From: an uncultured Thermoleophilia bacterium
GTDB lineage: Bacteria; Actinomycetota; Thermoleophilia; UBA2241
DNA length: 64,000 nucleotides
Direction of reading: 5' to 3'
Assembly: GCA_963791345.1 (NCBI GenBank)
Contig: CAWBRS010000010.1
Span: forward strand, 38,656-102,655
Shown: positions 2,182 to 45,257 of the stretch, one piece after another
Layout of the letters: every line of letters begins with the position of its first letter
How positions within the stretch are numbered: position 1 is the stretch's first letter
Program-made: the position numbers and the translations under genes
The notes under the pieces: generated by a model
The model's database searches: none
Told to the model about the DNA's origin: nothing
Seen by the model: only the letters and a program-made list of their open reading frames with translations

Positions 2182-5041
<2,860 letters not shown>

Positions 5042-16761: not shown

Positions 16762-17409
16762 ATGGCGGACACAGAGATCTTCGCGAAGCTCAAGCAGGCC
16801 GTGATCGACCAGGACGAGGACGCTGTGCTGGCCGCGGTCGACGAGGCCCTCGCCGGCGGCGTCGAAGCCAAGGCGGTCATCGACCAGGGGCTCCTGCCGG
16901 GCCTCAACGTCATCGGCGAGCAGTTCGAGTGCGAGGACATCTTCCTGCCCGAGCTCATGCAGGCGGCGCTGGCCTTCCAGTCGGCGATGGTCATCCTCGA
17001 GCCGAAGATCAAGGAGAGCGGGGCGGAGGGCCCCAAGAAGGGCAAGGTCGTGCTCGGCACCGTCAAAGGCGACCTGCACTCCATCGGCAAGAACATCCTG
17101 AAGCTCCTCTACGAGACCTCGGGCTTCGAGGTCTGGGACCTCGGCATCGACGTCGACCTGTTCCAGTTCGTCGACAAGGCGAAGGAGGTCGACGCCGACA
17201 TCATCGCCATGTCGGCCTTGCTGACGACGACCCTGGTCGGGCAGAAGGACCTCATCGAGGCGCTCACGGACCAGGGCACGCGCGACCGGTACAAGGTGCT
17301 GATCGGCGGCGGCGCGACAACGAAGGAGTGGGCCGACACGATCGGCGCCGACGGCTGGGCGGCGAGCGCCTACGAGGCCGTGACCCTGTCCGCGACGCTG
17401 GTCGCCTGA
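16762..17409 (+). CDS. Corrinoid (cobalamin-binding) methyl-carrier protein, MttC/MtbC/MtgC-like
   Basis: 215 aa with an N-terminal helical cap (IFAKLKQAVIDQDEDAVLAAVDEAL..G). The B12-binding domain has the DxHxxG motif (GDLHSIGKN) and MSALLTTT. Confidence 0.9.
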   Translation: MADTEIFAKLKQAVIDQDEDAVLAAVDEALAGGVEAKAVIDQGLLPGLNVIGEQFECEDIFLPELMQAALAFQSAMVILEPKIKESGAEGPKKGKVVLGTVKGDLHSIGKNILKLLYETSGFEVWDLGIDVDLFQFVDKAKEVDADIIAMSALLTTTLVGQKDLIEALTDQGTRDRYKVLIGGGATTKEWADTIGADGWAASAYEAVTLSATLVA

Positions 17410-21726: not shown

Positions 21727-23370
21727 ATGGCAACAGTCGCAGCCAAGCCGGAGGTCTTCAGCCGTAAGGCCTCGGGGCTCTCCAGGGTGATGTCGCCCTG
21801 GTCGGCGTACATGTACAACTTCCTGACCATGGGCGTGATCTTCCCGTGGACGTTCGTGTGGGCGCCGGCGGCGTTCCCGGGCGTCTCCGTGTGGCAGGCA
21901 TGCCTCTACGCCATCCTGCTCGAGCTGCCCATCGCCCTCGCCTACGTCTGGATGGCGACCGCGATGCCGCGCTCCGGCGGGGACTACGTCTTCCAGAGCC
22001 GCGTGCTCGGCGGGGCCATCGGCTTCCCGATCGTGATGAGCGGCTTCGTGATCTGGATCGTGCAGTGGGTCGCCCTGGCCGGCTGGCTCCTCGCCACCCT
22101 GGGCGTGGCGCCGCTGTTCATGGGGCTCGGCTACTACTACGAGAGCACCAGCCTCATCGACGCCGCCGTGTGGGCGCAGGGAGCGCAGGGCAAGGTCGTC
22201 ATCAGCATCATCGGCGCGTTCCTCATGGCGCTGCTGCTCGTGACGGGCTTCAAGAACTACGTGCGCCTGCAGTACTTCATGTTCGCGGCCACCGGCATCC
22301 TGGTCGTGATCTTGCTCGTGCAGTTCCTGCGCACCACCCCGGCCGAGTTCGCCGAGGCGATGAACAAGTTCTCCCTGTTCGTCGACGGCCGCGAGGACTA
22401 CTACAGCTTCATCCAGAAGGACGTGGCCGACGCCGGGGTGGACCTGATGCCCAAGTTCGCGCTGGGGGCCACGCTACTCGCCATCCCGATCGTCTGGACG
22501 AGCCTGCAGTGGGCGACCTACAGCGTGCAGCAGGGCGGCGAGATCAAGGGCGCCCGCGTCTTCAAGAACCAGATGTTCATCATCGTCGGCTCCATGATCT
22601 CGGTGGGCGTCGTCCTGGCCCTCATCGCGTGGGCCGAGGAGCGGGCCGTGGGCACCGAGTTCTTCAACGCAGTCTCCCACTCGTACTACTACCTGGTCAG
22701 CTCCTCGGGAGAGGGCATCGGCAGCGTCCTGCCCTTCCCCGGCATGTTCGCCATCGTGATCACGGCGAACCCCATCATCGTCGTCCTGACCGCGGTGAGC
22801 TTCATGCTCGCCTCGTTGCAGATCACCTGCAACTGCTACATCGGCATGACCCGCATCATGGTCGGCATGTCGCTCGACCGCACGCTGCCCGCGTTCCTCT
22901 CCAAGATCAGCCCGCGCTTCCGTTCGCCGGCGATCGCGCACTGGATCTACTTCGCCTTCGGGTGCTTCGCGATCTACGGCTACAACTACTGGGTCGACTG
23001 GTACAGGCTGACGCTCGGCGTCACCTTCGCCTGCGGGTACGTGTTCGTGGTCAGCTGCCTCGCGGCGGCGCTGATGCCCTACAGGGCCAAGGCGCTCTAC
23101 GATGCTTCGCCGGGCGCCAAGTACACGCTGGGCGGCTTCCCGCTGGTCACGATCTTCGGCGTCATCGGGTTCGTCTTCGGCGGCGCGGCGCTCGTCGCGT
23201 TCCTCTGGAACCCGAACTACGGCCTGCGCGGCGAGTCTCCGTACTGGGGCTACATCATGGTCGGCAGCATCTTCATGGTCTGCCTCGTCGGCTACTGGAT
23301 CGGCAGGGCCTACAACAAGAGCCGGGGCATCGACGTCAACTACGCCTTCCTCGAGGTGCCGCCGGAGTGA
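21727..23370 (+). CDS. APC-superfamily amino acid/amine permease (copy 1)
   Basis: 547 aa with about 12 or more TM segments. It carries AMPRSGGDYVFQSRVLGG, typical of APC transporters. Confidence 0.8.
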   Translation: MATVAAKPEVFSRKASGLSRVMSPWSAYMYNFLTMGVIFPWTFVWAPAAFPGVSVWQACLYAILLELPIALAYVWMATAMPRSGGDYVFQSRVLGGAIGFPIVMSGFVIWIVQWVALAGWLLATLGVAPLFMGLGYYYESTSLIDAAVWAQGAQGKVVISIIGAFLMALLLVTGFKNYVRLQYFMFAATGILVVILLVQFLRTTPAEFAEAMNKFSLFVDGREDYYSFIQKDVADAGVDLMPKFALGATLLAIPIVWTSLQWATYSVQQGGEIKGARVFKNQMFIIVGSMISVGVVLALIAWAEERAVGTEFFNAVSHSYYYLVSSSGEGIGSVLPFPGMFAIVITANPIIVVLTAVSFMLASLQITCNCYIGMTRIMVGMSLDRTLPAFLSKISPRFRSPAIAHWIYFAFGCFAIYGYNYWVDWYRLTLGVTFACGYVFVVSCLAAALMPYRAKALYDASPGAKYTLGGFPLVTIFGVIGFVFGGAALVAFLWNPNYGLRGESPYWGYIMVGSIFMVCLVGYWIGRAYNKSRGIDVNYAFLEVPPE

Positions 23371-23501
23371 TCGCACGACAGGCAGACTGAAACGGCAAAC
23401 GCACGCGCGACGACACGCTGCGACGGCAGCGCGCCCATTGAGCCCCGAGCGGCGGCCGCCGGACGCGGCGGCCGCCCCCGTCAGCAGGAAAGGCAGGGTA
23501 C

Positions 23502-24437
23502 ATGGCAACAGCGGCACACCATCTGTCGCCGGACGAGCTCATCGCCCGCATCGATGACTGGAAGGGCAAGGACATCCGCTGGGAGGAGCTCGGCGGCGGC
23601 ATCACCAACCACAACTACATCGTCTGGGTGAACGGCGGCTGGGACAACCCGGGCGGCGGCAAGTACGTGCTCCGCGTCCCGGGCGCGGGCACCGACATGT
23701 TCATCGACCGCGACGTCGAGCGCGAGTGCATGGTCGAGGCGGCCAGGATCGGCACGGCCCCCCAGGTCGCCCACGTCATCGAGCCCGAGAAGGCCATGGT
23801 CATCGACTTCATCGACGGCGAGGTCATGCACCCCGATACGATGGCCGGGCACCCGGAGCGCATCACGCAGGCTGTCGAGGCGGTCCGCGTGTACCACGAC
23901 AACGCGGTCTTCACCAACAAGATCGAGATCTTCGACATGCTCCGTCGCTACACCAAGGTGGCGAGCGACATCAACGCCCCCATGCCCGAGCGGCTCGCGG
24001 CGCTGCTGGAGCGGATGCCCGAGATCGAGGAGGCGACGGCGCGCAACCCCGTCCCCGACGTCGCCTGCCAGAACGACCTGCTCTCGGAGAACTTCATCGT
24101 CGACGCGAACGGCAAGATGTGGATCATCGACTGGGAGTACGGGGGCATGACCGACCCCTACTTCGACCTCGGTGACCACGTCATGGAGCACCCGTACTCG
24201 CGTGAGGAGGAGCGCCTCGTCATCGAGACCTATCTGGGCCACATGGACGAGCGGCTCTTCGGCCGCATGATGCTCTACAAGATCGTCTCGGCCGTCTGGT
24301 GGGATGTGTGGGCGATGATCCAGCACACGGTGTCCCAGATCGATTTCGACTACATGGAATGGGCCATGGACCGCGTCGGACGCGCCGAGCGCGGCGTGGC
24401 CGACCCCGACTACCTGAAGTGGCTGGCCGAGTGCTGA
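23502..24437 (+). CDS. Choline/ethanolamine kinase family protein (copy 2)
   Basis: 311 aa with ACQNDLLSENFI and IIDWEYGGMTDPYFDLGDHVME. It is collinear with copy 1, with roughly half of positions identical by eye. Confidence 0.85.
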   Translation: MATAAHHLSPDELIARIDDWKGKDIRWEELGGGITNHNYIVWVNGGWDNPGGGKYVLRVPGAGTDMFIDRDVERECMVEAARIGTAPQVAHVIEPEKAMVIDFIDGEVMHPDTMAGHPERITQAVEAVRVYHDNAVFTNKIEIFDMLRRYTKVASDINAPMPERLAALLERMPEIEEATARNPVPDVACQNDLLSENFIVDANGKMWIIDWEYGGMTDPYFDLGDHVMEHPYSREEERLVIETYLGHMDERLFGRMMLYKIVSAVWWDVWAMIQHTVSQIDFDYMEWAMDRVGRAERGVADPDYLKWLAEC

Positions 24438-24524
24438 GCGGGGCGCCGCGATCGCCTGTGAACGCAGCGAAAGGAGCGAGGAAGGGATGAAGCAGCACGA
24501 GATCACGCCGGAAGGAGGTTTGAC

Positions 24525-25472
24525 GTGACCGCACGGGTCTTCTTCGCGACCGACGTCCACGGGTCGGAGGTCTGCTGGCGGAAGTTCATCAACTCCGGAC
24601 CGCACTACGGCGCCAACATCCTGATCCTCGGCGGCGACATGACCGGCAAGGCGGTCGTCCCGATCATCGATCAGGGGGCGGGCAAGTACTGCTACCACAT
24701 GCAGGACGTCCGCCACGACTTCGAGGGCCAGGAGGCGCTGGCCAAGGAGACGCGCACCATCCGCGACCACGGCTACTACGCCGTGACCATGACCGCGGAC
24801 GAGCGTGACGAGTACACCAGGGACCAGGACAAGTTCGACGAGCTCTTCCACTCGCAGATGCGCAGCACCGTCGCCGACTGGGTGGAGTGGGCCGACGCCA
24901 AGCTGGCGGGCTCCGGCCTGCAGTGCATCGTGTGCCCGGGGAACGACGACCGTCACGACATCGACGGTATCCTCGCGCAGGCCGAACACATCCAGGTGGG
25001 CGAGGGCAACGTCCTCGACCTGCCGGACGGGTACCAGCTCGCCTCGAGCGGCTGGACGAACCTCACGCCGTGGGACACCCCACGTGAGGAGGACGAGCCC
25101 GAGCTGAAGAAGCGGCTCCAGGGGATCGTCGCCCAAGCGACGGTGTCGCCGGAGCGCCTCGTCCTCGGACTGCACTGCCCGCCCTACGACACGAACCTCG
25201 ACGTGGCGCCCAAGATCGACTGGGACACGCTGACGATCAAGGGGCAGGACACGGCCCACGTCGGCTCCACGGCCGTCACAGACATCATCAAGGAGGTGCA
25301 ACCTGTCCTGTCGCTGCACGGCCACATCCACGAGAGCCGTGCCGCCGAACGCATCGGGCGCACGCTGGCGATCAACCCCGGCAGCTCGTACGTGGAGGGC
25401 ACGCTGTCCGGCGTCGTGGTCGAGCTGGACGGCAAGAGCAAGATCAAGAACTACCGACTGACCATGGGGTGA
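24525..25472 (+). CDS. Calcineurin-like metallophosphoesterase (copy 2)
   Basis: GTG follows GGAAGGAGG. 315 aa with motifs ATDVHGS, GGDMTGK, PGNDD and GHIHES. It is collinear with 20657..21658. Confidence 0.85.
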   Translation: MTARVFFATDVHGSEVCWRKFINSGPHYGANILILGGDMTGKAVVPIIDQGAGKYCYHMQDVRHDFEGQEALAKETRTIRDHGYYAVTMTADERDEYTRDQDKFDELFHSQMRSTVADWVEWADAKLAGSGLQCIVCPGNDDRHDIDGILAQAEHIQVGEGNVLDLPDGYQLASSGWTNLTPWDTPREEDEPELKKRLQGIVAQATVSPERLVLGLHCPPYDTNLDVAPKIDWDTLTIKGQDTAHVGSTAVTDIIKEVQPVLSLHGHIHESRAAERIGRTLAINPGSSYVEGTLSGVVVELDGKSKIKNYRLTMG

Positions 25473-25545
25473 GCGCGCCGACGCGCGACACCAGGGGGAC
25501 GGCACCATGGTGCCGGCCGTAACCATTCGACAGGAGGGTCAACCT

Positions 25546-27279
25546 ATGGCAACAAACCCCGCACCGGAGCAGACGCTCTTCGTGCGCAAGGCCAGCGGCC
25601 TGGTCAAGGGGTGGTCCGGCGGGGACGGGTTCCGCTACTCGTTCTTCTCCGTGAACCTGTTCCTCGCCATCTGGTCGTTCGCCTACGCGACGTTCTTCCC
25701 CGAAGGCAGCCTGTTCTGGTCCATCGTCATCACCGCGATCTTCATCGTTCTCGAGATCATCGTCTACGCCGCCCTCATCTCGGCGATGCCGCGCGCCGGC
25801 GGCGACTACGTGTGGATGACGCGCATCTTCCACAGCGCGGTCGGCTTCGTGATCGCCGCTGTGGGCTGGTGGTTCATCCTCTGGCTCTGGACCCCGATCT
25901 ACGCCGACATGGGCGTCCAGACCACGATCAAGCCCATCTTCCGCATCCTCGGCCTGCACGGCGCGGCCGACTGGCTGGGGAGCCGCACGGGCATCTTCGT
26001 CGCCTCCCTCGTGGTCATCGCCATCGCCTCCACCCTGGTCGCGGTGGGCATGAAGACCTACGCCAAGTTCCAGAAGTGGGCCATGTGGATCGGCCTCGCC
26101 GGCGTCGTCATCTGCGGCATCCTGCTCCTGGTCACCTCCGGTGACAGCTTCAAGGAGAAGTTCAACGAGGCCTCCGAGAAGTACTACGGCGGCGACGCGG
26201 GCCTGCTCGACCTGACCAAGTACGAGCAGGACGACGCCGGCCTGTTCGTCTACGACGTCGACGGCAACATGGTCGCGGTCGAGGGCGAGACCCACGCCGG
26301 CGCGTTCGAGGCCATCGAGGCGATCGGCGAGGGCACCGGCATGCCGACCTCGACGTTCCAGGGCGGCATCGGCAAGTACACGTGGTTCCTCATCCCGTTC
26401 GCGCTCTTCTGGATGGCGTGGCCGAACTGGGGCGCCACCCTCTACGGCGAGGTGCGCGGCGCCAAGGACTTCCGCAAGAACATCTACCAGATGCTCGGCG
26501 GCCTCTTCGTGCCGACCTTCATCGCCCTGTCCTTCCTCGGGCTCATGACGTGGAAGGTGGGCTACCAGGCCTTCATGGGCACCATGGCGGGCTTCTGGTG
26601 GGGCATCTCGCCGATCGGTGGGGACTACGTGTCGCCCACGGCGATGATCTCCTGGATCGTGCCCAACGCGGCCTTCCAGGTCATCCTCATCGCCGCCATC
26701 TCGCTGCTCCTCTTCGGCTGGTTCGGCACGCTCTTCCTGTCGTCGACGCGCATGATCTTCGCGGCGGCCTTCGACCGGATCCTGCCTGAGCGCGTCGCGA
26801 AGGTGACCTCCAGCGGCGTGCCGGTGATCGCCCTGGTCCTCATGACCATCCCGTCGATCATCATGGCCGCGCTCTACGCCTACACGCCCGTCGACGAGGA
26901 CTACGGCGTCACCATCGTCAAGCTCTTCACCTACGACGCGACGCTCGGCATCGTCATCATGTTCCTGGGGTCGGCGCTCGCCTTCATGGTCATGAAGTGG
27001 CGCGCCAGGGCGATCTGGGACAGCTCGTCGCTGCCCAAGGGAGAGATCGCGGGCATCCCGTGGCTGTCCTTCGTCGCCGCGATCTACTCCGGGTTCATGG
27101 CGTGGGTCATCTACCGGTTCGTCGTCGACGACATGTACGGGGTCAACAACACCGAGTCGGCCATCTTCATGGGCGTCCTGTACGTGCTGGCGATCGTCAT
27201 CTGGGTCGTCGCCTGGGCGGTCCGCAAGAAGCAGGGTATGGCGCTCGAGTCCGTGGCCAAGGAGATCCCGGTCGAGTAA
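25546..27279 (+). CDS. APC-superfamily amino acid/amine permease (copy 2)
   Basis: ATG 25546 follows AGGAGGG. 577 aa with AMPRAGGDYVWMTRIF. It shares the N-terminal FVRKASGL motif with copy 1 (FSRKASGL). Confidence 0.8.
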   Translation: MATNPAPEQTLFVRKASGLVKGWSGGDGFRYSFFSVNLFLAIWSFAYATFFPEGSLFWSIVITAIFIVLEIIVYAALISAMPRAGGDYVWMTRIFHSAVGFVIAAVGWWFILWLWTPIYADMGVQTTIKPIFRILGLHGAADWLGSRTGIFVASLVVIAIASTLVAVGMKTYAKFQKWAMWIGLAGVVICGILLLVTSGDSFKEKFNEASEKYYGGDAGLLDLTKYEQDDAGLFVYDVDGNMVAVEGETHAGAFEAIEAIGEGTGMPTSTFQGGIGKYTWFLIPFALFWMAWPNWGATLYGEVRGAKDFRKNIYQMLGGLFVPTFIALSFLGLMTWKVGYQAFMGTMAGFWWGISPIGGDYVSPTAMISWIVPNAAFQVILIAAISLLLFGWFGTLFLSSTRMIFAAAFDRILPERVAKVTSSGVPVIALVLMTIPSIIMAALYAYTPVDEDYGVTIVKLFTYDATLGIVIMFLGSALAFMVMKWRARAIWDSSSLPKGEIAGIPWLSFVAAIYSGFMAWVIYRFVVDDMYGVNNTESAIFMGVLYVLAIVIWVVAWAVRKKQGMALESVAKEIPVE

Positions 27280-31715: not shown

Positions 31716-33741
<2,026 letters not shown>

Positions 33742-33800
33742 ACGACGACCCTGCGAGCACGGACATCCCACAACGATTCACGGTGCGGAGGTCACCGAGC

Positions 33801-35210
33801 ATGAAGATATTGACCAGGATGGGTGACTCCTCGAACGTCGAGCTCACCCCGGACGAACTGCGTCAGGAGTTCGTCACGGGGTCCGAGGCCGCGGCGGTCA
33901 AGGCGAAGATCCCCACGCTGACCGAGAACGAGGTCGACTTCCTCGTCGACATGTTCTCGGCGCCGACGCGACTCTGGGGCGTGCAGCGCGGCAACGAGGT
34001 CGTGATGACCAAGGACGGCTGCGTCAACGCGCTCAACTCGTCGCGCATGTCGAGCGGCGTCGTCGCGCCGGTCAACCGCGAGGTGGGCGTGCGCCTCTTC
34101 GAGTCGATGCTCGGCTTCGACTCGATGGAGGTCTCGCACAACGACTACTCCGTGAAGCCGCAGCGCTTCCTCAAGGCCCTGGAGCAGCTGCACATGGAGC
34201 TTCTGCAGGAGACCACCATCTTCCCGCTGCTCTACGGCTTCATGCCCAACCTCGGGCTCTACTACCGCCCGGACGGGTCCTTCGAGAACCCCTCCGACCT
34301 GCTGCCCCTGGGCAAGATCGCCGAGGCCCGTCGCACGCAGGAAGAGGCGCTCGAGGCGTGCATGGAAGACTGCATCGAGATGAGCGACTGCATGGTCGCG
34401 ATGGGCGCCGACGGCATCGACTACGACACCGTCGCGTCGACCGGTGACGCCGAGTTCCTCGCCGTGCTCAAGACGACCGAGCACGTCGCCAACGAGACGG
34501 GCCTGCCGGTCGAGATCGGCATGTCGTCGGAGATGGTCCTCGGCTTCCACGGCCAGCTCGAGTACAACGGCGTCCGCCTCGCCGGCCTCTGGCCGCACCA
34601 GCAGCTCGACCTCTGCGAGCAGGCGGGCTGCGCGATCTTCGGCCCCGTCTGCAACACGAACACCAGGAAGACGGTGCCCTGGAACCTCGCCCGCGCGCTG
34701 ACGTTCGTGAAGGCCTGCACCGAGGTCGCCAAGATCCCGATCCACCCGAACGTGGGCATGGGCGTCGGCGGCGTGCCGATGTTCGAGACGCCTGCCGTCG
34801 ACGTCGTCACGCGCTGCAGCGCGGCGATGATCGAGATCGGCAAGGCCGACGGGTTGTAGGTGGGCACGGGCGACCCTGCCGGCATGCACCTGGCGCATCT
34901 GCTGGCCTCATCGATGGGTGGCATCCGGGCCGCTGGAGACCTGGTGGCGAGGATGCAGCTCAACAAGAAGATGAGGATCGACGACGCCAAGAGGTACGTG
35001 GCCGACAAGCTTCACGTGACGCCGCTCGACCTCTCCGATCCGACGCTGATGAGAGGTCTCAGGGAAGAGCTCGACATCGGCACGATCACCGGCGTCCCCG
35101 GTGTCGCGAAGGGCATCGCGGCGAAGGTACGCATCGCCGAGCTGCTCGACATCGAGATCAACTCCGTCGAGCAGTTCAAGAAGAAGACGGGCCTCGTCTC
35201 GGCGAAGTAG
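33801..35210 (+). CDS. mtbB: Dimethylamine:corrinoid methyltransferase MtbB homologue with an in-frame TAG (34857-34859) at the pyrrolysine position
   Basis: ATG 33801 lies 9 nt after GGAGG. Track ORFs 33783..34859 and 34860..35210 share one frame and are separated only by TAG. The joined ~469-aa product is collinear with archaeal MtbB as recalled ([54 protein letters not shown], ..[16 protein letters not shown].., [27 protein letters not shown]). Confidence 0.8.
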
Positions 35211-35230
35211 CCCGACCACCGAGCGACGAC

Positions 35231-35269
35231 CGCGGCCGGCCGCGCCCGAGGAGGGCGCGGCCGGCCGCG
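35231..35269 (+). terminator. GC-rich hairpin downstream of mtbB
   Basis: CGCGGCCGGCCGCGCCC-gagga-GGGCGCGGCCGGCCGCG is a perfect 17-bp stem starting 21 nt after the stop. Confidence 0.55.
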
Positions 35270-35673
35270 TCGCATCGTGGCGCCCGGGGAGGCCGCGGCC
35301 GGAGGCGCCGTCCGCCGCGACGACCTCCCTCGACCGATACTGAGGCGGTCGCCGAGTCGTCGTCACCCGGCCTGGTCGTCTGACAGCACTCTGAGTGCAC
35401 TCGGCCTCCTTCGGACCTTGACGGCGCCCCCCGTAATTGGTACAGATGACCTACACTTTGGGGACGAGGCGATGGCAGGGTGGTCTCGCGGTTGGAGTGG
35501 TGGGCACGGGAGTCGCCAAGCTGCACGCTCCGCACGGGCCTTCAATAGGCATGCGCTCCAAGCCTTTCCTGTGTCGTCGCCCTCTCCACGGCGGTGAGGT
35601 GACTACCCGCAGCACGGCTGCGAGTGGCTGGACAGGGCTCGACGGGACAGGGCGCGACGGAAGGGAGACATCG

Positions 35674-36462
35674 TTGGCAACCTCAGATGGCGCATCGGGC
35701 GGCCGGCTCGAAGGCAAGGTGGCGCTGATCACCGGCGCGGGCATGGGTCAGGGCCGTGAGGCATGCAAGGTCTTCTCGCGCGAGGGCGCACGTATCATCG
35801 CCGTCGATGTCGACGAGACCGCGCTGCAAGAGACGTGTGCCCTCGTGGAAGGGAACGGGGGCGAGATCGCGCCGTTCGTCGCCGACGTCAGCGACGAGGC
35901 CCAGGTGCGCGACGCCGTCGAGGGCGGCTACCGGCGCTTCGGCGAGCTGCACATCGTCTACAACAACGCCGGGGTCCTGTGGCGGGACCGCGACCTCTCG
36001 GTCGTCGACACGCCGCGGGAGAACTGGGACCGCGTCATCGCCATCAACCTCACGGGTCCCTATCTCGTCTGCAAGTACGCCGTGCCGAAGCTGATCGACG
36101 GCGGCGGAGGAGCCATCCTCAACATCGGATCGATCTCCGCCGTGGTGGGCTTCACTCGGCCCCAGGACGCCTACACCAGCGCCAAGGGAGCCCTCATCGC
36201 GCTGACGAAGTCGCTGGCCGTGCAGTACGCCAAGGACCACATCAGGGCGAACATCATCCACCCCGGCTTCATCGACACGCCGATGCAGGCGGAGGAGCTC
36301 GCCGATCCGGGCTTCGTGAAGGCCGTCGAGGAGTCGATCCCGCTGGGTCGCATCGGCAAGCCGAACGACATCGCGCGGGCCGCCCTGTTCCTCTGCAGCG
36401 ACGAGGCGTCGTGGGTGACGGGAGCGGAGCTCGTCGTCGACGGCGGCTTCCTGGCCACGTGA
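35674..36462 (+). CDS. Short-chain dehydrogenase/reductase (SDR)
   Basis: TTG 35674 follows AAGGGAG. Motifs are GKVALITGAGMGQG, NNAG and YTSAKGA. The in-frame sequence upstream (from ATG 35437) has low third-position GC and looks non-coding. Confidence 0.8.
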   Translation: MATSDGASGGRLEGKVALITGAGMGQGREACKVFSREGARIIAVDVDETALQETCALVEGNGGEIAPFVADVSDEAQVRDAVEGGYRRFGELHIVYNNAGVLWRDRDLSVVDTPRENWDRVIAINLTGPYLVCKYAVPKLIDGGGGAILNIGSISAVVGFTRPQDAYTSAKGALIALTKSLAVQYAKDHIRANIIHPGFIDTPMQAEELADPGFVKAVEESIPLGRIGKPNDIARAALFLCSDEASWVTGAELVVDGGFLAT

Positions 36463-36487
36463 GCGCGCGGACGCGGAGGGCCTGGCG

Positions 36488-37945
36488 ATGAGCGATCCGA
36501 CCGGGGCGAGAGCGTGGCAGGTCGCCTCGTTCGACGATCTCCGGCGCCACATCGAGGAGCATCGCATCGAGATGGTGTGCCTGCGGTCGGTCGACCTCAA
36601 CGGCACGTCGCGACAGCTGTGCCTGCCGGCGGCGACGGTGAGCGAGGACCTGATGACCGGCGGCATCGGCATCGGGGCCTCGTCGTTCCCCGGCGTGAGC
36701 GGCCTGGAGGCATCGGACATGAGGGCCCTGCCCGACCTCGGCAGGGTGTTCGTCGATCCCTGCACCGACACCCCCACGCTGGTGCTCGTCTGCGACGTCG
36801 TGAAGGCCGACGGCTCGCCCTTCGTCCGCGACGGTCGCGCGATCCTGCGCCGCGCCGCCGAGGAGCTCGCCGCCGTCTCGGGGGCGCTCGGGCTGCTGGC
36901 GCTGCCGGAGCTCGAGTTCTACATCTTCGACGACGTGCGCTACGCGACCGAGATGAACCGCGCGTCGTACGTGGTCGACACCGTGGAGGGCCGCTGGAAC
37001 ACGGACCGGCGCGAAGAGCCGAACCTGGGCTACAAGCTCGAACGGTTCCGCGGCATGCAGGCCATCCCGCCTCGCGACCACCTGTACGAGCTGCGCAGCG
37101 AGATGGTCTCGGCGATGCTCGCCTGCGGCGTACCCGTGAAGTACCACCACCACGAGGCCGGCGGACCGGCGCAGTGCGAGATCGAGCTGGCGTTCACGCC
37201 CATCGTCGAGGCCGCCGACCATCTGCAGATCGCCAAGGACGTCGTCAAGCAGGTGGCGGTCCGCAACGGGCACCTGGCGACCTTCATGCCGAAGCCCCTG
37301 TTCGACGAGGCGGGCAACGGCATGCACGTCCACTTCAACCTCACCGACGGTCGGCAGTCCCTCTTCTACGAGGCGGGGGAGTACGGGTGCCTGAGCGAGC
37401 TGGCACGCTTCGCCATCGGCGGCCTGCTGCACCACACGCCGGCGCTCATGGCGCTGACGAACTGCACCACGAACTCCTACCGGCGCTTCGGTCAGCTCGC
37501 GGCGCCCACCAGCCTGTTCTACTCCGTGGGCAACCGCTCGGCCGCCGTCCGGGTCCCGGCCTACGGCATGACGCCGACGGATCAGCGCATCGAGTATCGG
37601 GTCGCCGACGCGGCGGGCAACGTGCACGTGAAGCTCGCGGCTCTGGCGGCGGCGATGGCCGACGGGATACGACAGCGCATCGCCCCGCAGGAGCACGGCT
37701 TCGGCCCCTGGGACGTGAACGCGTACGAGCTCCCGGCGGAGGAACGGGCAGCCATGAAGAAGGCCCCCACGAGGTTCGAGGACGCGCTCGCCGCGCTGCG
37801 CGCCGATCATGCCTTCCTCGAGGCCGGCGGCGTCTTCGATGAAGGGTTCGTCGAGGCGTGGGCGCAGTTGAAGATGGAGCAGGAGGTGGAGGCCGTGGCC
37901 GTTCGACCCCACCCCTATGAGTTCACCCTGTACCTGGATCGGTGA
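36488..37945 (+). CDS. Glutamine synthetase family protein (type I-like glutamate-ammonia/amine ligase)
   Basis: 485 aa with LPELEFYIF, KYHHHEAGGPAQCEIEL, ATFMPKPLFDEAGNGMHVHFNL, and NSYRRF. Confidence 0.85.
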   Translation: MSDPTGARAWQVASFDDLRRHIEEHRIEMVCLRSVDLNGTSRQLCLPAATVSEDLMTGGIGIGASSFPGVSGLEASDMRALPDLGRVFVDPCTDTPTLVLVCDVVKADGSPFVRDGRAILRRAAEELAAVSGALGLLALPELEFYIFDDVRYATEMNRASYVVDTVEGRWNTDRREEPNLGYKLERFRGMQAIPPRDHLYELRSEMVSAMLACGVPVKYHHHEAGGPAQCEIELAFTPIVEAADHLQIAKDVVKQVAVRNGHLATFMPKPLFDEAGNGMHVHFNLTDGRQSLFYEAGEYGCLSELARFAIGGLLHHTPALMALTNCTTNSYRRFGQLAAPTSLFYSVGNRSAAVRVPAYGMTPTDQRIEYRVADAAGNVHVKLAALAAAMADGIRQRIAPQEHGFGPWDVNAYELPAEERAAMKKAPTRFEDALAALRADHAFLEAGGVFDEGFVEAWAQLKMEQEVEAVAVRPHPYEFTLYLDR

Positions 37946-38003
37946 TCCGACGGATCAACCCTCCGATCACGCAGCTTCGGCACGGACCTGAAGGAGTCTG
38001 AGG

Positions 38004-39445
38004 ATGGACGCGAAGGATGGTCGCGAGTCCACGACGACGGCGAGCGCCGGCGTCGTGCCGGCGGGAGTGCGCACCGCTCAAGAGGCTCGGGAGTACCTGG
38101 CCGAGCACCGCATCGACAACGTCCGGCTGGTCGTCACCGACCTCATGGGGATGGCTCGCGGGAAGCGGGTGCCCGTCGAGAAGTTCCTCAAGGCCTGCGA
38201 AGGCGGCCTCACCTACTGCCTCGCGCACTACGGATTCACGATCGACTCGGACATGGTGCCCGACCTGCCCGGTCTCGGCTGGGCGAGCGGTTTCCCCGAC
38301 GCCGTGATGTGGCCCGATCTCGGCACGCTCACGATCCTGCCGTGGGACGAGGGCTCGGCGTGGGTCATCTGCGACATGCGCTATCAGGACGGCAGCGACG
38401 TGCCCTACGACCCGCGCAACGTCCTCAAACGGCAGATAGCCAAGCTCGGCGAGTCGGACGCCGCGCTGGTGGTCGGCCTCGAGTACGAGTGCTACGTGCT
38501 CAGGGAGACCCAGCAGTCGCTGCGCGCCAAGATGTGGGACCCGGCGCAGTTCGAGGGACTCTTCGTGGGCGGCGGCTGCTACGACCAGGTGCGCACAGGG
38601 GTGGCGGGTCCGCTGATGAAGGACATCTGGCGCAACCTCTGTCGCGCCGGCGTGCCGCTGGACTCGTTCCACATCGAGCTGGGAGGCGGTCACCTCGAAT
38701 TCCCCATGAAGGAGGCCGAGGCGCTGGCGGCGGCAGACAGGGCGATCCTGCTCAAGGTGGCGATCAAGGAGATCTGCCAGCAGCACGGCCTGATGGCGAC
38801 GTTCATGGCCAAGATCGACCCCTCGTACGAGGGCCTCTCCGGCGCCGTGCACCACAGCCTGGTGGACGGGTCCGGCGCCAATCTCTTCTACGACGCGGGG
38901 CGGCCGAACGGCCTGTCGGCGGTCTTCGACCACTGGTGCGAAGGCCTGCTCCAGAACGTGGTCGACATGACGTTGATGTTGCTGCCCAACTACAACTCCT
39001 ACAAACGCCCGGTCCCCGGTTCGTACGTCGGCAACTCGACGACCTGGGGGGTCGAGAGTCGAGCCACCGCCTTCAGGGTCATCAACTTCGACCCCCACGC
39101 CGTGCGCATCGAGGCGCGCCTGGCGGCCGCCGACGCCAACCCGTATCTCGCCGTGGCCGCCACGCTCGCCGCCGGCAGCTACGGTCTGCGCAACCAGCTT
39201 GACCGTGCGGCCACTCTTCACCGGGACCGACCCGGCGATCGACGATCAGGGGCGGGCGGACGTGCAGTACATCCCGGCCTCCCTCGAGGCGGCGATCAGT
39301 CAGTTCGAGGGCAGCACGCGGATGCGCGAGTTCTTCGGCGACACGTTCTGCGACGGCGTTCCTGGCGCACCGGAGGAACGATCTCGACTGGTTCCGGCAG
39401 AGGGTGAGCGATCTGGAGCGGGCCCGCTACATGGAGTACGTCTAA
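38004..39445 (+). pseudogene. Glutamine-synthetase-like gamma-glutamyl-amine ligase (GlnA3/GlnA4/PuuA-like) with two 3'-proximal frameshifts (or assembly indels)
   Basis: Motifs are GLEYECYVL, SFHIELGGGHLEFPM, ATFMAKI..GLSGAVHHSL, and NSYKR. The C-terminus continues in two other frames: ..PLFTGTDPAIDDQGRADVQYIPASLEAAISQFEGSTRMREFFGDTF (from ~39195), then FLAHRRNDLDWFRQRVSDLERARYMEYV-TAA (from ~39357). Confidence 0.8.
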
Positions 39446-39470
39446 GCACGTCGGAGCGCGGAGGACGTCT

Positions 39471-41401
39471 GTGGCAGACGAAGCGACAGCACAGGGCTAC
39501 AACCGCAGGATCCTGCATGCCGACCTCGGCAGCGGCACCCTCGAGGTCGAAGAGCCCTCCCCAGGCTTCTATCGGACCTACCTGGGCGGCGGTCTCCTCG
39601 GGTCCTACTACGTGTTCAAGGGGACGCCGCCCGGGGTCGACCCCCTCTCTCCGGAGAACGTCCTGGTCTTCGCGCCCAGCGTCGTCACCGGAGCTGCCGT
39701 CATGGGTGCGAGCCGTTTCAACGTGAGCGCGAAGTCGCCCCTGACGGGTGCCATCGGAGACGCGCAATGCGGCGGGGACTGGGGCGCGAGACTGAAGCAC
39801 GCGGGCTTCGACGCGGTGGTCGTCAAGGGCCGTTCGCCGAAGCCCGTGTACCTGTGGATCGACGGGGGCCGAGCCGAGATCAGAGACGCGGCTCATCTGT
39901 GGGGAAAGACGACGGGAGACGCCCAGGCGCTGATCCGCAGCGAGCTCGAGGACGCCCGTGTGGAGGTCGCCCAGATCGGCCCTGCGGGGGAGAACCTGGT
40001 GCGCTTCGCCTGCATCACCGGTGGTCTCAGCCACTTCGCCGGGAGGACCGGCATGGGCGCCGTCATGGGCTCCAAGAACCTGAAGGCGATCGCGGTCCGC
40101 GGACGCCGGGCTACGGCTTCCACGACAAGGAGGCGCTCCAGGAGCTGGCGCGGAAGGGAGCGGCGGATTTCCGCGCCTCGGAGGGGCTCCAGGCGTTCGC
40201 CACGCACGGCACCGCCCTGCTCGTGTCCGTCAACAGAGGCAGGGGCAACATCGCCACCCGCAACTTCAGCGAGGGCGACCTCGAGGGCCTCGAGGCCCTC
40301 TACGGCGAGACGATGACCGAGAGCATCCTCAGCGGGAGAGACACCTGCTGGTCGTGCCCGATCAGGTGCAAGCGCGTCGTGGAGACGGAGGCCCCCTACA
40401 GGATCGAGCCGGAGTACGGCGGTCCGGAGTTCGAGACGCTCGTCACGCTGGGTCCCAACCTCGGGATCTGCGATCTGGACGTCGTCGCGAAGGCGTCGGA
40501 GATCTGCAACAAGTACGGGATGGACACCATCAGCGCCGGTGGCGTCATCGCCCTGGCGATGGAGTGCGCCGAGAGGGGGCTCATCGACGATCCCCGCGTC
40601 TCGGGTCGTGCACTCCGCTTCGGCGACGGCGAGGCCGTCCTCGGCCTTCTCGAGATGATCGCGCGGCGCGAGGGGATCGGGGACCTGCTCGCCGAGGGGC
40701 CGCAGCGAGCGGCGTCGGCGTGGGGGAGGGGCAGTGAAGACCTGGGCATCCACACCAAGAACCAGGCCTTCGCCGCGCACATGCCGCAGGTCAAGCCCAG
40801 CATGGCGCTGATCTACGCCGTGAGCCCGTCGGGGCCCGACCACATGGCGTGCGAGCACGACTGGATCGGAGCTACCGACAGCGATCTGTCCCGCGGCCTC
40901 GGCATCACGGAGACGACCGAGCTCGAGAGCCTGGACACGGCGAAGGTCAAGGCCACCATGCTCTCCCAGCTCTACTACAGCGCGATGGACACGCTCACGG
41001 TCTGCCACTTCATCTGGGGGCCGGGAGCTGTCTACACCTACGACGAGCTGTGCCGGTTGGTCCGCGACGTCACCGGGTGGACCGTGAGTCTCTGGGAGCT
41101 GATGCGGGCCGGCGAGCGGCGCGTGACCCTGATGAAGGCGTTCAACGTGAGGGAGGGCCTGGGCGTCGAGTCCGACACGATGCCGGGCAGGATGTTCGAG
41201 CCTCTGCGGGGAGGGGCGCGCGACGGCGCCCGAGTCGACGGTGAGCGCTTCGCCGCGGCACGCTCCGAGTACTACGGCGTCATGGGCTGGGACGAGGAGA
41301 CGGGCGTGCCGACTCACGGCAAGCTGATGGACCTCGGGCTGGACTGGGTCATCCCCGCGCTCGACGACCCGGCGCGGTCGTCAGGAGCAGCGTGCTGCTG
41401 A
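39471..41401 (+). pseudogene. Aldehyde:ferredoxin oxidoreductase (tungsto-/molybdopterin AOR family) with one frameshift at ~40100 (or assembly indel)
   Basis: GTG follows GGAGGA. It has the AOR N-domain (RILHADLGSGTLEVEE...GGGLLGSYY), the 4Fe-4S motif DTCWSCPIRC, and a collinear C-terminal domain in track ORF 39767..41401. The junction lies between KAIAVRG and PGYGFHDKEAL. Confidence 0.85.
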
Positions 41402-41625
41402 AGGTCAGATTCTCCGGCTTCCCGCCGTCGCTCCTGCCGCGCCCCGCGGCGGAGACGGCCGTCGAGGCCGAGCCCGGCATCACCCTGGCGGGCGTGATGC
41501 GGTCGCTGGACGTGCCCGAGGGATCGGGGATGGCGTTCGTGGTCAACGGCCGCGTCCGGCCGCCTGAGTACCAGCCCGAGGATGGCGATGACATCGCCGC
41601 CGTCCGGTCGCTGGCCGGAGGGTGA
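41392..41625 (+). CDS. MoaD/ThiS-family ubiquitin-like small protein
   Basis: 77 aa ending in ..RSLAGG (C-terminal Gly-Gly). It overlaps the AOR stop. Small beta-grasp proteins commonly accompany AOR genes. Confidence 0.6.
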   Translation: MLLKVRFSGFPPSLLPRPAAETAVEAEPGITLAGVMRSLDVPEGSGMAFVVNGRVRPPEYQPEDGDDIAAVRSLAGG

Positions 41626-42403
41626 CCGGGCCGTCGTGAGCGCGAACCACGACAGCTTCCTCCCGCCGCGCGGGACGCGAGGGGAGATAGCCGAGGAGCT
41701 GCGCCGTCGCATCCGGGGCGGCGAGTTGCCGCCCGGGCAGCGCCTGCCGACCGAGCGCGAGCTGGCCGAGGAGCTCGCTGTGTCGCGCACGACCGTGCGC
41801 GAAGCGCTGCAGGCTCTCAGGGAGGAGGGTTTCGTCGCCACGGTCCGCGGGCGCGCGGGCGGCAACTTCGTCACCGACCTCGCCCAGCCGCAGGCGCTCT
41901 GGTACGAGCGCATCCGGCAGGATCCGGGGGAGCTGGACCAGCTCTTCGACTACCGCATCGCTCTCGAATCCCGGAGCGCCTACCTCGCCGCCAGCCGGCG
42001 AGACGGCCACGCCCTGGCGACGATGCGCGAGAGCGTCCATCTGCTGGAGACGCGCGCGGCAGTCTCCCCGGAGGAGTACCAGGTCGCCTTCCGTCGGGCC
42101 GACGCGGCGTTCCACGAAGCTGTCGCCCAGGCCGCGCACAACGATCGCCTGTATCGGGCCATACGTGCGGCGCGGGGCGACATCTTCTTCCCCTTCGACC
42201 AGCTGCCGCATCCCGTCTACGTGACGCCGACCCTCGAGGCACACGCGATGATCCTGCAGGCCGTCCGCTCGGGGAACCCTCCGGCGGCGGCGAGCGCGAT
42301 GGAGACTCACCTCGAGCGGACCCGGATCGAGCTTGGCACGATCATCCTCATGATGACCGGCCGCATGTCGGACGGCGAAGAAGGCCCGGGCTCTCGTGAG
42401 TAG
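41582..42403 (+). CDS. GntR family transcriptional regulator (FadR/FCD subfamily)
   Basis: The wHTH is LPPGQRLPTERELAEELAVSRTTVREALQALREEGFVATVRGRAGGNFV, followed by an FCD-like C-domain. The start is uncertain: ATG 41582 overlaps the moaD-like gene, and GTG 41636 is the alternative. Ends in TAG. Confidence 0.8.
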   Translation: MAMTSPPSGRWPEGDRAVVSANHDSFLPPRGTRGEIAEELRRRIRGGELPPGQRLPTERELAEELAVSRTTVREALQALREEGFVATVRGRAGGNFVTDLAQPQALWYERIRQDPGELDQLFDYRIALESRSAYLAASRRDGHALATMRESVHLLETRAAVSPEEYQVAFRRADAAFHEAVAQAAHNDRLYRAIRAARGDIFFPFDQLPHPVYVTPTLEAHAMILQAVRSGNPPAAASAMETHLERTRIELGTIILMMTGRMSDGEEGPGSRE

Positions 42404-42566
42404 GGCCTCGTCGACGCCCGTGTGGCGGCCCGGGCCGGAGCGGCCGCACTCGCGGCGGCGCCAAGACTTCGTGCGGCGGGGGAAGGGAGGTCTTGACAAC
42501 ATCTCGGGCGAGGGAACAAGGTACGCGACAATGGCCACACCGGATTTCTGACTGAAGGGGGTCACT

Positions 42567-44197
42567 ATGGCAGACGAACCGTCCGTGTCGCCGACCGGCG
42601 GCGCGCCTCCAGGGGGCACGCCCGTCCATATCGACGAGGACACGAAGCAGCTGCACGAGATGGGCTACGCCCAGGAGCTCGACCGCCGCATGAGCGGCTT
42701 CTCCAACTTCGCCATCTCCTTCACGATCATCTCGATCCTGTCGGGCTGTCTGACCGTCTATCAATACGGCTTGCTGCACGGCGGCCCGCCGGTCATGACC
42801 TGGGGCTGGCTGGGCGTCGGTATAGTCGTGATCTTCGTCGGCATGTCGATGGCCGAGATCTGCTCGTCGTTCCCGACGGCCGGCGGCCTCTACTACTGGG
42901 CTGCCAAGCTGGCGCCCGGCAACAGCGCCCCGATCTGGTCGTGGTTCACCGGCTGGTTCAACCTCGTCGGGCAAGTCGCGGTCACCGCCGGCATCAGCTT
43001 CGGCTGCGCCTACTCGGTCTCGGCCTTCCTTGCCGAGTACACGGGCGACGCGGCCTGGTTCGACCCGGAGGCCACCATCGCCATCCTGGCCGTCATCCTC
43101 TTCGCACAGGGGTTGCTGAACACGTTCGGCATCAAGCTGGTGGCCCTTCTCAATGACATCTCGGTCTGGTGGCATCTCATCGGTGTGGCCGTCATCGTCG
43201 CCGTCCTGTACTGGGCGCCGGAGTCGGGCGAGCACCAGACCATGTCGTTCGTGTTCGGGAGCGAGGGCTGGAAGGCGTTCGAGGGCCTCTCTGGGTTCAC
43301 GGCGCCTGTCTACGTCGCTCTCCTCGGCCTGCTGAACGCGCAGTACACGTTCACCGGCTACGACGCCTCGGCCCACGTGTCCGAGGAGACGATCCGCGCG
43401 AACGTCCAGGCGGCGAAGGGGATCGTCAATTCGATCTGGGTGTCCTTGATCGCCGGTTTCGTCTTGCTCGTCGGCGTGAGCTGGGCGCTGCCGAAGACCT
43501 TCCCGGTCAGCTTCGGAGGGACCGAGTTCGCCTCCGTGTCCGATCTGTCCGTTGGTCATCACACCGTGGGCGGTGGCTTTCACGACCTCCGCCGGCCGGA
43601 CCATCGGCCTGCTGCTCATCCTGATCGTCATCGGGGCGCAGTTCTTCTGCGGCATGTCGTCCGTCACGGCCAACTCGCGCATGATCTACGCGTTCTCGCG
43701 GGACGGCGCCGTGCCAGGCTCGCAAGTTCTGGCACCACGTCAGCCCGAAGCGGCGCGTCCCCGTGCGCTCGGCCTGGTTCGGCGCCGTCGGCGCCTTCAT
43801 CCTCGCCCTCCCGTGGCTCTGGAGCGCCGTAGCCTACTTCGCCGTGGTCTCGATCGGGGTCATCGGGCTCTACGTCGCCTACCTGACGCCGGTGTTCCTG
43901 CGGCGCATCAACCCCAAGGCGTTCGTGCCCGGGCCCTACAAGCTCGGCTGGTACGGTCCGATCATCAACTGGATCGCCATCATCTGGGTGGTGTTCATCT
44001 GCATCATCTTCTGCCTGCCTCAGTACTCGCCCATCACAGCCTCGACCTTCAACTACACGCCGGTGGTCGTGGGCGTCGTCGTCGGCGGCGCTGGCCTCTG
44101 GTACGCGGTCTCGGCCCGCAAGTGGTTCAAGGGCCCGAAGGTCCAGGGTACTCCTGAGGAGCTCGCCGCGATCGAGCGCGAACTCACGGAGTTCTGA
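42567..44197 (+). pseudogene. APC-family amino acid/amine (GABA/choline-type) permease with two frameshifts (or assembly indels)
   Basis: Motifs are FSNFAISFTIISILSG, AEICSSFPTAGGLYYWA, and YTFTGYDASAHVSEE. It continues in frame +1 from ~43550 (VITPWAVAFTTSAGRTIGLL..ANSRMIYAFSRDGAVPGS) and in frame +2 from ~43722 (KFWHHVSPKRRVPVRSAWFGAV...). Confidence 0.8.
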
Positions 44198-44260
44198 GGG
44201 TAGCACGCAGTAGCACGACCGCCGTGTGAGCACGCCTCGCACGACGCGCACACCGCGGGA

Positions 44261-44296
44261 GCGGGCGGGGGAGGCGAAGCAGCCTCCCCCGCCCGC
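44261..44296 (+). terminator. GC-rich hairpin downstream of the permease
   Basis: GCGGGCGGGGGAGGC-gaagca-GCCTCCCCCGCCCGC is a perfect 15-bp stem, followed by TTCGTGCGT. Confidence 0.55.
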
Positions 44297-44321
44297 TTCG
44301 TGCGTCTGGTAGGCTCAGCTC

Positions 44322-45257
44322 ATGACGACGCAGGACGATCGGAGCGGCGGCCGGCCGCTGGTGATGTTCGACCACGACGGCGTCGTGGTCGACTCCTTCG
44401 CGGTGTTCGGGCCCGCCTTCGCGGCGGCCTGTGTCGAGGCCGGCATCCCCGGTGTGCGCACTCCCGACGACGTCCTCGAGCTGTTCGCCGGCAACGTCTA
44501 CGAGAGCCTGAGGGCTGCCGGCGCCGACGTGGGCCAGTCCCGGCGGGCGATGCGCGTCGCGGCCGAGGCACTCGAGCGGGAGCTGCCCCGACTGCGGCCG
44601 TTCCCCGGCATGACGGAGCTGCTGCGCGGCCTCAGCGCCGTGCATGACGTCGTCATCGTGACCTCGAACGCCGAGGGTCTCGTGAAGCGCTTCCTCGCCC
44701 GGCACGGGCTGGGCGACGGCGTCGCCGTGGCCGGCTTCGAGAGCGGCCGCAGCAAGGTCGAGAAGATCCGCGCGCTCGTCGAGTGTCACCCGGGGCAGGA
44801 TGTCTACTGGTTCGTGGCCGACACCGAAGGCGACATGCGCGAGGCGCGCCTCGCCGGAGCCACTCCCGTCGGCGTCGCCTGGGGGTGGCACGACGCCGCC
44901 CGCCTGCGCGCCGCCGGCGCCCACTGCGTGGCCGTCAGCGCCGGCGAGCTCCACCGGCTGCTCGCCGCCCGAGGACGCGGCCGGCTGATCGCCGACGGTG
45001 CGCCGGACGGAGGCGCTCGAGACCCGCGCGCCGACGGTCGGCCGAGGCGCGGCGGCCGGACGTGCTCGAAGCCGCCCAAGCACGGCCGGTCGACGGTCAG
45101 CGACGGCGCGGCGGGCGAAAATGCTCGAGGTCGCCGGGTCGCGGAACGTCGTCGGGGCGGACGTCGCTCGTCACCCGACGCCCCGTCGTGCCGCGCAGCG
45201 CGTAGCGCCCGTGCTCGACCTCCTCGAGGAGGGGCGAGTAGGCGATCCGGTTGCTGA
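44322..45257 (+). CDS. HAD-superfamily hydrolase (phosphoglycolate-phosphatase-like); 3' end uncertain
   Basis: Motif I is VMFDHDGVVVDS, motif II is IVTSN, and motif IV-like is VADTEGDMREA. The last ~90 codons are Arg/Gly-rich, unlike HAD proteins, and overlap the convergent gene by 161 nt. The true stop is probably earlier, or lost through an indel. Confidence 0.6.
   Translation: MTTQDDRSGGRPLVMFDHDGVVVDSFAVFGPAFAAACVEAGIPGVRTPDDVLELFAGNVYESLRAAGADVGQSRRAMRVAAEALERELPRLRPFPGMTELLRGLSAVHDVVIVTSNAEGLVKRFLARHGLGDGVAVAGFESGRSKVEKIRALVECHPGQDVYWFVADTEGDMREARLAGATPVGVAWGWHDAARLRAAGAHCVAVSAGELHRLLAARGRGRLIADGAPDGGARDPRADGRPRRGGRTCSKPPKHGRSTVSDGAAGENARGRRVAERRRGGRRSSPDAPSCRAARSARARPPRGGASRRSGC

Follow-up and report, generated by a model that had tools for sequence, protein, structure and literature searches.

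Positions 33801–35210 of the DNA stretch analysed here carry a gene for a dimethylamine:corrinoid methyltransferase (mtbB) that is interrupted at codon 353 by an in-frame UAG. We consider it very probable, at roughly 0.9, that this is a functional gene whose UAG is translated as pyrrolysine (Pyl), giving full-length MtbB. The stretch, hereafter the window, comprises 64,000 nucleotides (nt) of contig CAWBRS010000010.1 (assembly GCA_963791345.1, positions 38,656–102,655) from an uncultured Thermoleophilia bacterium (UBA2241). The identity of the gene, the position and conservation of the UAG, the selection acting downstream of it and the occurrence of full pyl gene sets in relatives are directly supported by the comparisons described below.

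An interrupted mtbB gene in the window

The two open reading frames (ORFs) 33783–34859 and 34860–35210, both on the + strand, lie in the same frame with TAG 34857–34859 alone between them (...GGG TTG TAG GTG GGC...). Translation of 33801–35210 gives a 469-position product with one internal stop and a terminal TAG at 35208–35210. The GC content at third codon positions (GC3) is 0.91 before the internal TAG and 0.89 after it, and the GC content of the whole window is 70.6%. Both the arrangement of the two ORFs and the high GC3 on either side had been pointed out in a first-pass annotation of this DNA, and the ORF list, the sequence and the measured values bear this out. ATG 33801 is favoured as the start of mtbB because a GGAGG motif is found at the right spacing upstream. 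The parts of the gene are as follows.

33788–33792, + strand: Shine-Dalgarno-like GGAGG, 8 nt before ATG 33801, read from the sequence
33801–34856, + strand: N-terminal part of mtbB, 352 codons (PF09505 profile positions 5–353, E 1.5e-126)
34857–34859, + strand: in-frame UAG, codon 353, on the pyrrolysine column (PF09505 position 354; RF02509 positions 1–3)
34860–35207, + strand: C-terminal part of mtbB, 116 codons, made only with read-through of the UAG (PF09505 positions 355–463, E 1.5e-48)
35208–35210, + strand: terminal stop of mtbB, also TAG (sequence and translation)

The joined product, with X at the stop, scored 506.8 bits against the NCBI equivalog model TIGR02368 (cutoff 369.1) over residues 5–462 of 469, in keeping with the earlier proposal that the joined ORFs form a protein of about 469 residues collinear with MtbB. 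Both halves were matched by Pfam PF09505 (Dimeth_Pyl), and profile position 354 alone was left for the TAG. The Rfam model RF02509 (PYLIS_2, mtbB) matched 34857–34956 over model positions 1–100 with 68.2 bits (gathering score 36), and its opening UAG falls on the UAG of the window. Past the UAG, the consensus of RF02509 translates as IGVGDP.GM, for which the window has VGTGDPAGM. The alignment directly compares the window with curated archaeal mtbB sites, and the motif that the first-pass annotation had given after Pyl, IGVGDPLGM, is consistent with it. In the mtbB genes found beside pyl genes in six other lineages (Clostridia, Syntrophomonadaceae, Desulfobacteraceae, another Deltaproteobacterium, Dehalococcoidales and Ca. 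Acetocimmeria), the stop occupies the column that the TAG has in the window, within DGL*VGVGDP (asterisk, stop). All three comparisons, with PF09505, with RF02509 and with the pyl-linked mtbB genes of other phyla, agree with the placement of the TAG on the Pyl column that had been proposed. A sequence search of the PDB with joined MtbB found no solved relative. Judged from these matches, the window gene is an mtbB with its UAG on the Pyl column, and its product is predicted to act on dimethylamine.

Compared with MtbB1–3 of Methanosarcina (TIGR02368/PF09505), the window protein is collinear end to end and lies above the equivalog cutoff. Its gene has one in-frame UAG in the same column, keeps the O-[VI]G.GDP.GM motif and matches the Rfam mtbB PYLIS model from the UAG on. 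The differences lie in the host, the surroundings and the RNA. The host is a 70% GC bacterium rather than a methanogen, no MtbC or MtbA gene directly adjoins mtbB, and the neighbours are permease, phosphoesterase-like and kinase-like genes, unlike the Methanosarcina setting; in addition, helix 1 of PYLIS is not kept in the window lineage. If other bacteria are a guide, tetrahydrofolate presumably takes up the methyl group, in place of the coenzyme M of Methanosarcina.

Conservation of the UAG and of the downstream part

A scan for homologues with one genome per species (GTDB) gave 62 loci (L001–L062) from 61 metagenome-assembled genomes (MAGs), with 64 mtbB copies. The MAGs are labelled Thermoleophilia, Actinomycetes or Actinomycetota, and many of them come from the long-read 'MFD' series. 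The N-terminal part shows 81–99% amino-acid identity to 57 of the 62 loci, the remaining five being lower or fragmentary. TAG stands at codon 353 in all 64 copies and TGA or TAA in none, in line with the earlier argument that a random nonsense mutation is unlikely. The codons flanking the TAG show ordinary synonymous variation.

Downstream of the UAG, further stops were found in none of the 36 ungapped copies checked. The ratio of nonsynonymous to synonymous substitution rates (dN/dS, as a ratio of means over 35 ungapped copies compared with the window) is 0.14 for the C-terminal part and 0.23 for the N-terminal part. Against the five closest relatives, the ratio of the proportions of nonsynonymous and synonymous differences (pN/pS) of the C-terminal part is 0.07–0.13. 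These values indicate that the stretch after the UAG evolves under purifying selection. Of the 120 best-scoring homologues in a collection of 5.8 billion proteins, nearly all are pieces from the N-terminal side, about 346–356 residues long with some shorter ones, and cover at most 75% of the query; no full-length homologue with a sense codon in place of the UAG was found among these 120. The database homologues of about 346–356 residues are products cut by gene callers at the UAG.

Pyl machinery in relatives of the window organism

Where, then, are the genes for Pyl decoding? Within the window, ARAGORN found no tRNA, and tblastn with PylSc, PylSn, PylB, PylC and PylD gave no match, just as the first-pass annotation had seen no pylT, pylS or pylBCD there. 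A tblastn search with PylSc over the window and the mtbB loci was also without match, and the pyl genes do not lie within 10 kb of mtbB. A close-homologue protein search with Methanosarcina mazei PylSc returned Methanosarcina-type sequences only, and a search among 50% representatives was used instead; the chain of baits led from M. mazei PylRS (a full-length match to PDB 2Q7E) through diverse PylSc representatives to P0135, which has a high-GC composition.

When species genomes were scanned with P0135 PylSc, 19 of the 25 loci returned were from Thermoleophilia or Actinomycetota MAGs, and for 10 of these 19 the MAG also carries an mtbB with TAG. In the closest relative of the window, MFD04716.bin.2.196, mtbB is located in L001 and pylSc in L070. 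In nine of the scanned loci, ARAGORN detected tRNA-Pyl(CUA) within a few kb of pylSc. A second MAG, MFD04716.bin.1.399, has two mtbB loci (L021 and L058) and a pyl locus (L064) with tRNA-Pyl(CUA), the products of which scored as follows, with cutoffs taken from the NCBI equivalog models.

L064 PylSc: 310.8 bits, cutoff 178
L064 PylSn: 118.2 bits, cutoff 51
L064 PylD: 205.4 bits, cutoff 150
L064 PylC: 343.9 bits, cutoff 248
L064 PylB: 437.6 bits, cutoff 348

An exact pattern built on the anticodon arm of pylT matched 65 loci when the species collection was searched; with a single exception, they belong to MAGs of Thermoleophilia, Actinomycetes or Actinomycetota. Going by isolate names, 49 of the 61 MAGs that bear mtbB are represented. 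ARAGORN adds tRNA-Pyl for four MAGs missed by the pattern, which brings the number to 53 of 61; these are Zod_maxbin.0406_1 and, with tRNA-Pyl adjoining pylB, bog_752, SEr3G3H3I__bin_3 and MFD05942.bin.2.346. The pylT pattern is exact and the PylB profile scan covers the matches listed, so that MAGs with no match are not to be read as lacking pyl genes.

The window shares about 86–88% DNA identity with L001–L006 and is therefore regarded as a different species of the same narrow clade. The pylS loci of this clade, L068–L070, contain pylSc, a gene for an MtbC-like corrinoid protein and pylSn. The clade PylSc scored 308 bits, and pylSc is also present in a further clade locus, L072; the MtbC-like protein scored 219.4 bits against TIGR02370 (cutoff 215.3). 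At L068–L070, no pylT or pylBCD was found where other Thermoleophilia have them, and the exact pylT pattern hit none of the six MAGs of L001–L006. In Zod_maxbin.0406_1, the MAG of L006 and L068, the PylB profile scan and ARAGORN revealed a separate contig, L161, with pylB, pylC and pylD and, behind these, tRNA-Pyl(CUA). This tRNA escaped the exact pattern because it is only 85% identical to the other tRNA-Pyl of Thermoleophilia. Like that of L064, it folds into a compact cloverleaf with a CUCUAAA anticodon loop, and the changes that set the two apart in the anticodon and T stems are compensatory. The cassette of the clade is thus split over two loci, pylSc-mtbC-pylSn and pylBCD-pylT, and is complete in at least one member. 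Other Thermoleophilia (L064, L073) have a single locus, in which pylBCD-pylT-pylSn-mtbC stands with a divergent pylSc.

The first-pass annotation had named a complete genome lacking pylTSBCD as evidence against its reading; in the closest genomes available the check speaks for the reading, with pylSc and pylSn in the relatives at about 86–88% identity and the full set in Zod_maxbin.0406_1. Its claim that the organism decodes UAG as Pyl is supported in the genomes of relatives, and for the window organism itself we infer it from them.

Desulfitobacterium hafniense and Acetohalobium arabaticum also have a split synthetase, and the relatives of the window resemble them in having separate pylSc and pylSn, pylBCD and a compact tRNA-Pyl(CUA). 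They differ in that the hosts here are high-GC Actinomycetota of the class Thermoleophilia, that pylSc is divergent from pylBCD-pylT-pylSn, and that in the clade of the window the cassette occupies two loci. A further likeness to Acetohalobium is that UAG is still an ordinary stop for many genes in the window lineage. In Acetohalobium, Pyl decoding is reported to be substrate-induced.

Usage of UAG and candidate cis elements

TAG ends seven of the 40 confident genes in the window and about 16% of those in related loci, the internal codons of mtbB being set aside. A genome-wide reassignment of UAG was rejected, given that TAG still ends about one gene in six (about 17%). No second TAG-interrupted gene is suggested in the window, where the other TAG-ended ORFs would extend by only 17–79 codons on read-through. 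The terminal stop of mtbB is TGA in 49 copies, TAG in eight (including the window) and TAA in six. In the window, the internal UAG and the terminal TAG are the same codon, 116 codons apart, and read-through of the latter would add 128 codons.

Two hairpins lie in or directly behind the C-terminal part of the gene.

34929–34948, + strand: small hairpin, helix 2 of PYLIS_2, 72–92 nt past the UAG, function uncertain
35232–35268, + strand: perfect 16-bp G+C hairpin directly past mtbB, -59.4 kcal/mol, z = -6.25

The second of these has no T tail and was not listed by a consensus terminator scan; judged from its predicted fold, it is probably a transcript-end structure. Regarding the first, helix 2 of PYLIS has 99% of its cells paired in 57 sequences, with one covarying pair (CG 27, AU 16, UA 9). 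Helix 1 has 66% of its cells paired, and three of its pairs form in hardly any sequence or in none. Over the 30 codons past the UAG, synonymous variation amounts to 0.73–1.26 bits versus a gene mean of 0.61, and is not reduced. Because helix 1 is poorly formed and synonymous variation is not reduced, the match to RF02509 is attributed mainly to protein-coding similarity, and a PYLIS element required for decoding was not adopted on the same two counts. The hairpin at 34929–34948 is unproven as an insertion element, and the helix pairing, covariation and synonymous variation examined did not demonstrate a dedicated insertion element.

As a separate observation, the Leu codon directly before the UAG (34854–34856) is TTG in 61 of the 64 copies, TTA in three and never CTN, despite a GC3 of about 90%, and GGA-GAT within the hairpin 72–92 nt past the UAG is likewise fixed. 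This fixation may reflect a nucleotide-level context constraint on the decoding of the UAG.

Proposed decoding and alternative explanations

The mechanism established for the MtbB family would apply to the window gene in the following way. PylB, PylC and PylD, presumably encoded elsewhere in the genome and outside the window, would convert two lysines to pyrrolysine, which the split synthetase PylSc plus PylSn would charge onto the amber-suppressor tRNA-Pyl(CUA). This tRNA would compete with release factor 1 at the UAG to give the 469-residue enzyme, in which the side chain of Pyl would bind and activate dimethylamine, and the methyl group would pass to the Co(I) of the cognate corrinoid protein. 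Since UAG still ends about one gene in six, its decoding is expected to be competitive, and probably regulated or tolerated.

Several points weigh against this reading. First, TAG is common as a stop and also ends mtbB itself, and the two UAGs of the gene would have to be told apart. Second, for five of the six closest MAGs, neither the exact pattern nor the PylB-scan matches listed turned up pylBCD and pylT. Third, the window has no pyl gene, and the Pyl capacity of its organism is projected from relatives that are different species. Fourth, the Pyl residue in the protein, like the presence of pyl genes in the window genome and the substrate specificity, is a prediction from sequence. Finally, there are frameshifted genes in the window, so some gene decay or assembly error must be reckoned with nearby.

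What other explanations would account for an mtbB with an internal UAG? It could be imagined that the UAG is read through but not as Pyl. In that case the pyl genes would have been lost or be absent, a near-cognate or other suppressor tRNA would insert a canonical residue at a low level, and the activity on dimethylamine would be altered or none. The window devoid of pyl genes, the five closest MAGs for which the same two scans recovered no pylBCD and pylT, and the move of pylT and pylBCD away from pylS in the clade would all fit. However, one clade member has the full set (L006, L068 and L161), the other three clade loci that extend far enough have both pylSc and pylSn intact, and the searches that missed pyl genes are not exhaustive. 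A tolerated canonical residue should, moreover, have replaced the stop, whereas the TAG in 64 of 64 copies and the lack of a sense variant among the best 120 homologues fit a dependence on Pyl. We consider this explanation improbable.

We give even less credence to a split gene, in which translation would stop at the UAG and restart at GTG 34860, and the enzyme would be assembled from one polypeptide of 352 residues and one of 116. In the window and in most copies the TAG is indeed directly followed by GTG, which can serve as a start, and purifying selection on both parts is predicted by this model as well. In five copies (L010, L020, L024, L035 and L062), however, the codon after the TAG is GTC, GTA or GTT, none of which is a start. 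The junction would also coincide with the catalytic Pyl column, at which read-through is established for the family, and Pyl machinery and mtbB occur in the same MAGs.

The least credible explanation, a nonsense mutation, a pseudogene or a sequencing error that leaves an inactive 352-residue fragment or nothing at all, draws some support from the frameshift-like breaks in other window genes, such as a 1-base insertion near 32821, and is excluded because all 64 copies, which stem from independent short-read and long-read assemblies, have the TAG, the 116 downstream codons (GC3 0.89) have no stop in 36 ungapped copies and are under purifying selection (pN/pS about 0.1), and no full-length homologue with a sense codon was found among the best 120; the comparative data effectively refute it. 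The insertion near 32821 lies in the transketolase gene (31716–33741), is seen relative to all 11 aligned relatives and results in two frames. Further genes are apparently split as well, namely those for an amino-acid permease, a P-type ATPase and an aldehyde:ferredoxin oxidoreductase (AFOR), with breaks at 42567/43552, 1858/3684 and 39199/39767. The breaks would stem either from long-read indel errors or from gene decay and pseudogenes. They do not touch the conclusion on the TAG, because the TAG is kept across independent assemblies.

Genomic neighbourhood and a candidate corrinoid partner

Besides mtbB, two features of the window are relevant here.

16762–17409 (start approximate), + strand: corrinoid (B12-binding) methyltransferase partner protein, the nearest candidate methyl acceptor in the window
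24525–27279, + strand: metallophosphoesterase-like gene and amino-acid/choline-type permease (Pfam), near mtbB in 47 and 44 of the 62 loci

In the arrangement shared by most related loci, a choline-kinase-like gene precedes the metallophosphoesterase-like gene and the permease, mtbB stands directly behind these two, and HAD and PPK2 genes follow. In the window, the permease and mtbB are kept apart by a DeoR-transaldolase-aminotransferase-transketolase block. Linkage of the type seen at 21727–27279, namely a choline/ethanolamine-kinase-like gene, a metallophosphoesterase-like gene and one or two APC-type permeases with mtbB, recurs in 41–47 of the 62 loci. In general across L001–L062, mtbB lacks linkage to the genes for a corrinoid protein and an activase that methylamine operons usually contain. 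Between mtbB and the PPK2 region, a block of about 10 kb (about 35210–45180) has no counterpart in L001–L006; it contains an SDR gene, two glutamine-synthetase-like (GlnA-like) genes, AFOR, a GntR regulator and a permease. This block looks like a lineage-specific insertion and possibly serves amine or aldehyde metabolism.

The corrinoid protein at 16762–17409 scored 227.9 bits as MtgC type, 198.9 bits against TIGR02370 (cutoff 215.3) and 195 bits against the MtbC model (cutoff 350), all below the curated cutoffs, and shares 40% identity with the MtbC-like protein encoded next to pylS in L070. Some relatives have an MtbC-like protein 4–5 kb from mtbB. In the window, the corrinoid gene stands between a non-Pyl MttB-family gene (15212–16666) and an MtmB-family gene (17450–18832, + strand). 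The latter is full length, has no in-frame stop, scores 221 bits against PF05369 and has Ile aligned to Pyl202 of M. barkeri MtmB (1L2Q). It resembles MtqB, a non-Pyl MtmB homologue that demethylates tetramethylammonium and choline (PMC13044021). Taken together, these genes give the region the look of a methylated-amine island in which mtbB encodes the only Pyl enzyme in view, and we speculate that mtbB and the non-Pyl MttB and MtmB homologues could take part in a stepwise demethylation of choline-type compounds.

Additional mtbB copies are found in L058 and L005. At 3582–11395 of L058 (CAVXXF010000004.1), one MAG has two more mtbB paralogues, which are diverged (63% and 48% identity) and both contain the TAG; they alternate with an AsnC regulator and two non-Pyl MttB-family genes that are uninterrupted, and adjoin AFOR, NrfD and ferredoxin genes. 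In L005 (CAWBNR010000008.1; 11828–13233 on the - strand and 8041–9447 on the + strand), an inverted second transketolase-mtbB block lies beside the first. The second block has many indels and a frameshift in mtbB, and could be a genuine inverted duplication or else an artefact of long-read assembly.

Significance for Pyl use in Actinomycetota

The first-pass annotation had held that the rarity of Pyl makes such a host notable. This was overstated, as Actinobacteria had already been reported: Guo et al. (2022, PMC9630628) mention PylRS genes in 'two Actinobacteria' among 81 bacterial genomes, and Ellenbogen et al. (2023, PMC10805028) mention that Actinobacteriota MAGs from Stordalen Mire express Pyl-type mttB and mtbB. 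The Stordalen MAGs bog_752 (L026, L191), palsa_645 and fen_672 are among the loci found here. The present case is accordingly not a first, since a Pyl-type mtbB in Actinobacteriota is already published; the phenomenon is the same and the organisms are partly the same. The mentions in these two papers are of one sentence each and do not describe the breadth (61 MAGs with the gene, 65 pylT-type loci) or the anatomy of the loci. A full-text literature search for pyrrolysine together with Thermoleophilia returned no relevant paper. To judge from these mentions, the breadth of Pyl use in the class and the locus anatomy appear under-described.

On balance, we lean towards the view that a high-GC soil and peat branch of Actinomycetota, Thermoleophilia and its neighbours, is a major and largely undescribed bacterial home of Pyl decoding, with at least 65 species-level genomes carrying this type of pylT, a cassette split in the clade of the window, and UAG ending about one sixth of genes. 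If this is true, the lineage would be a natural test case for how amber suppression is tolerated or regulated amid abundant UAG stops. With a GC content of 70% and UAG serving both as a frequent stop and as a Pyl codon, it would form a contrast to the low-GC anaerobes and archaea that have been studied, and the PylRS/tRNA-Pyl of Thermoleophilia are possible new orthogonal pairs. Because standard gene callers cut mtbB at the UAG and halve it, as seen in the best 120 homologues, methylamine use by abundant soil and peat Actinomycetota is under-annotated. Bacterial consumption of dimethylamine competes with methylotrophic methanogens for methane precursors in wetlands and soils, and such competition is the context in which Ellenbogen et al. 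(PMC10805028) sighted these genes.

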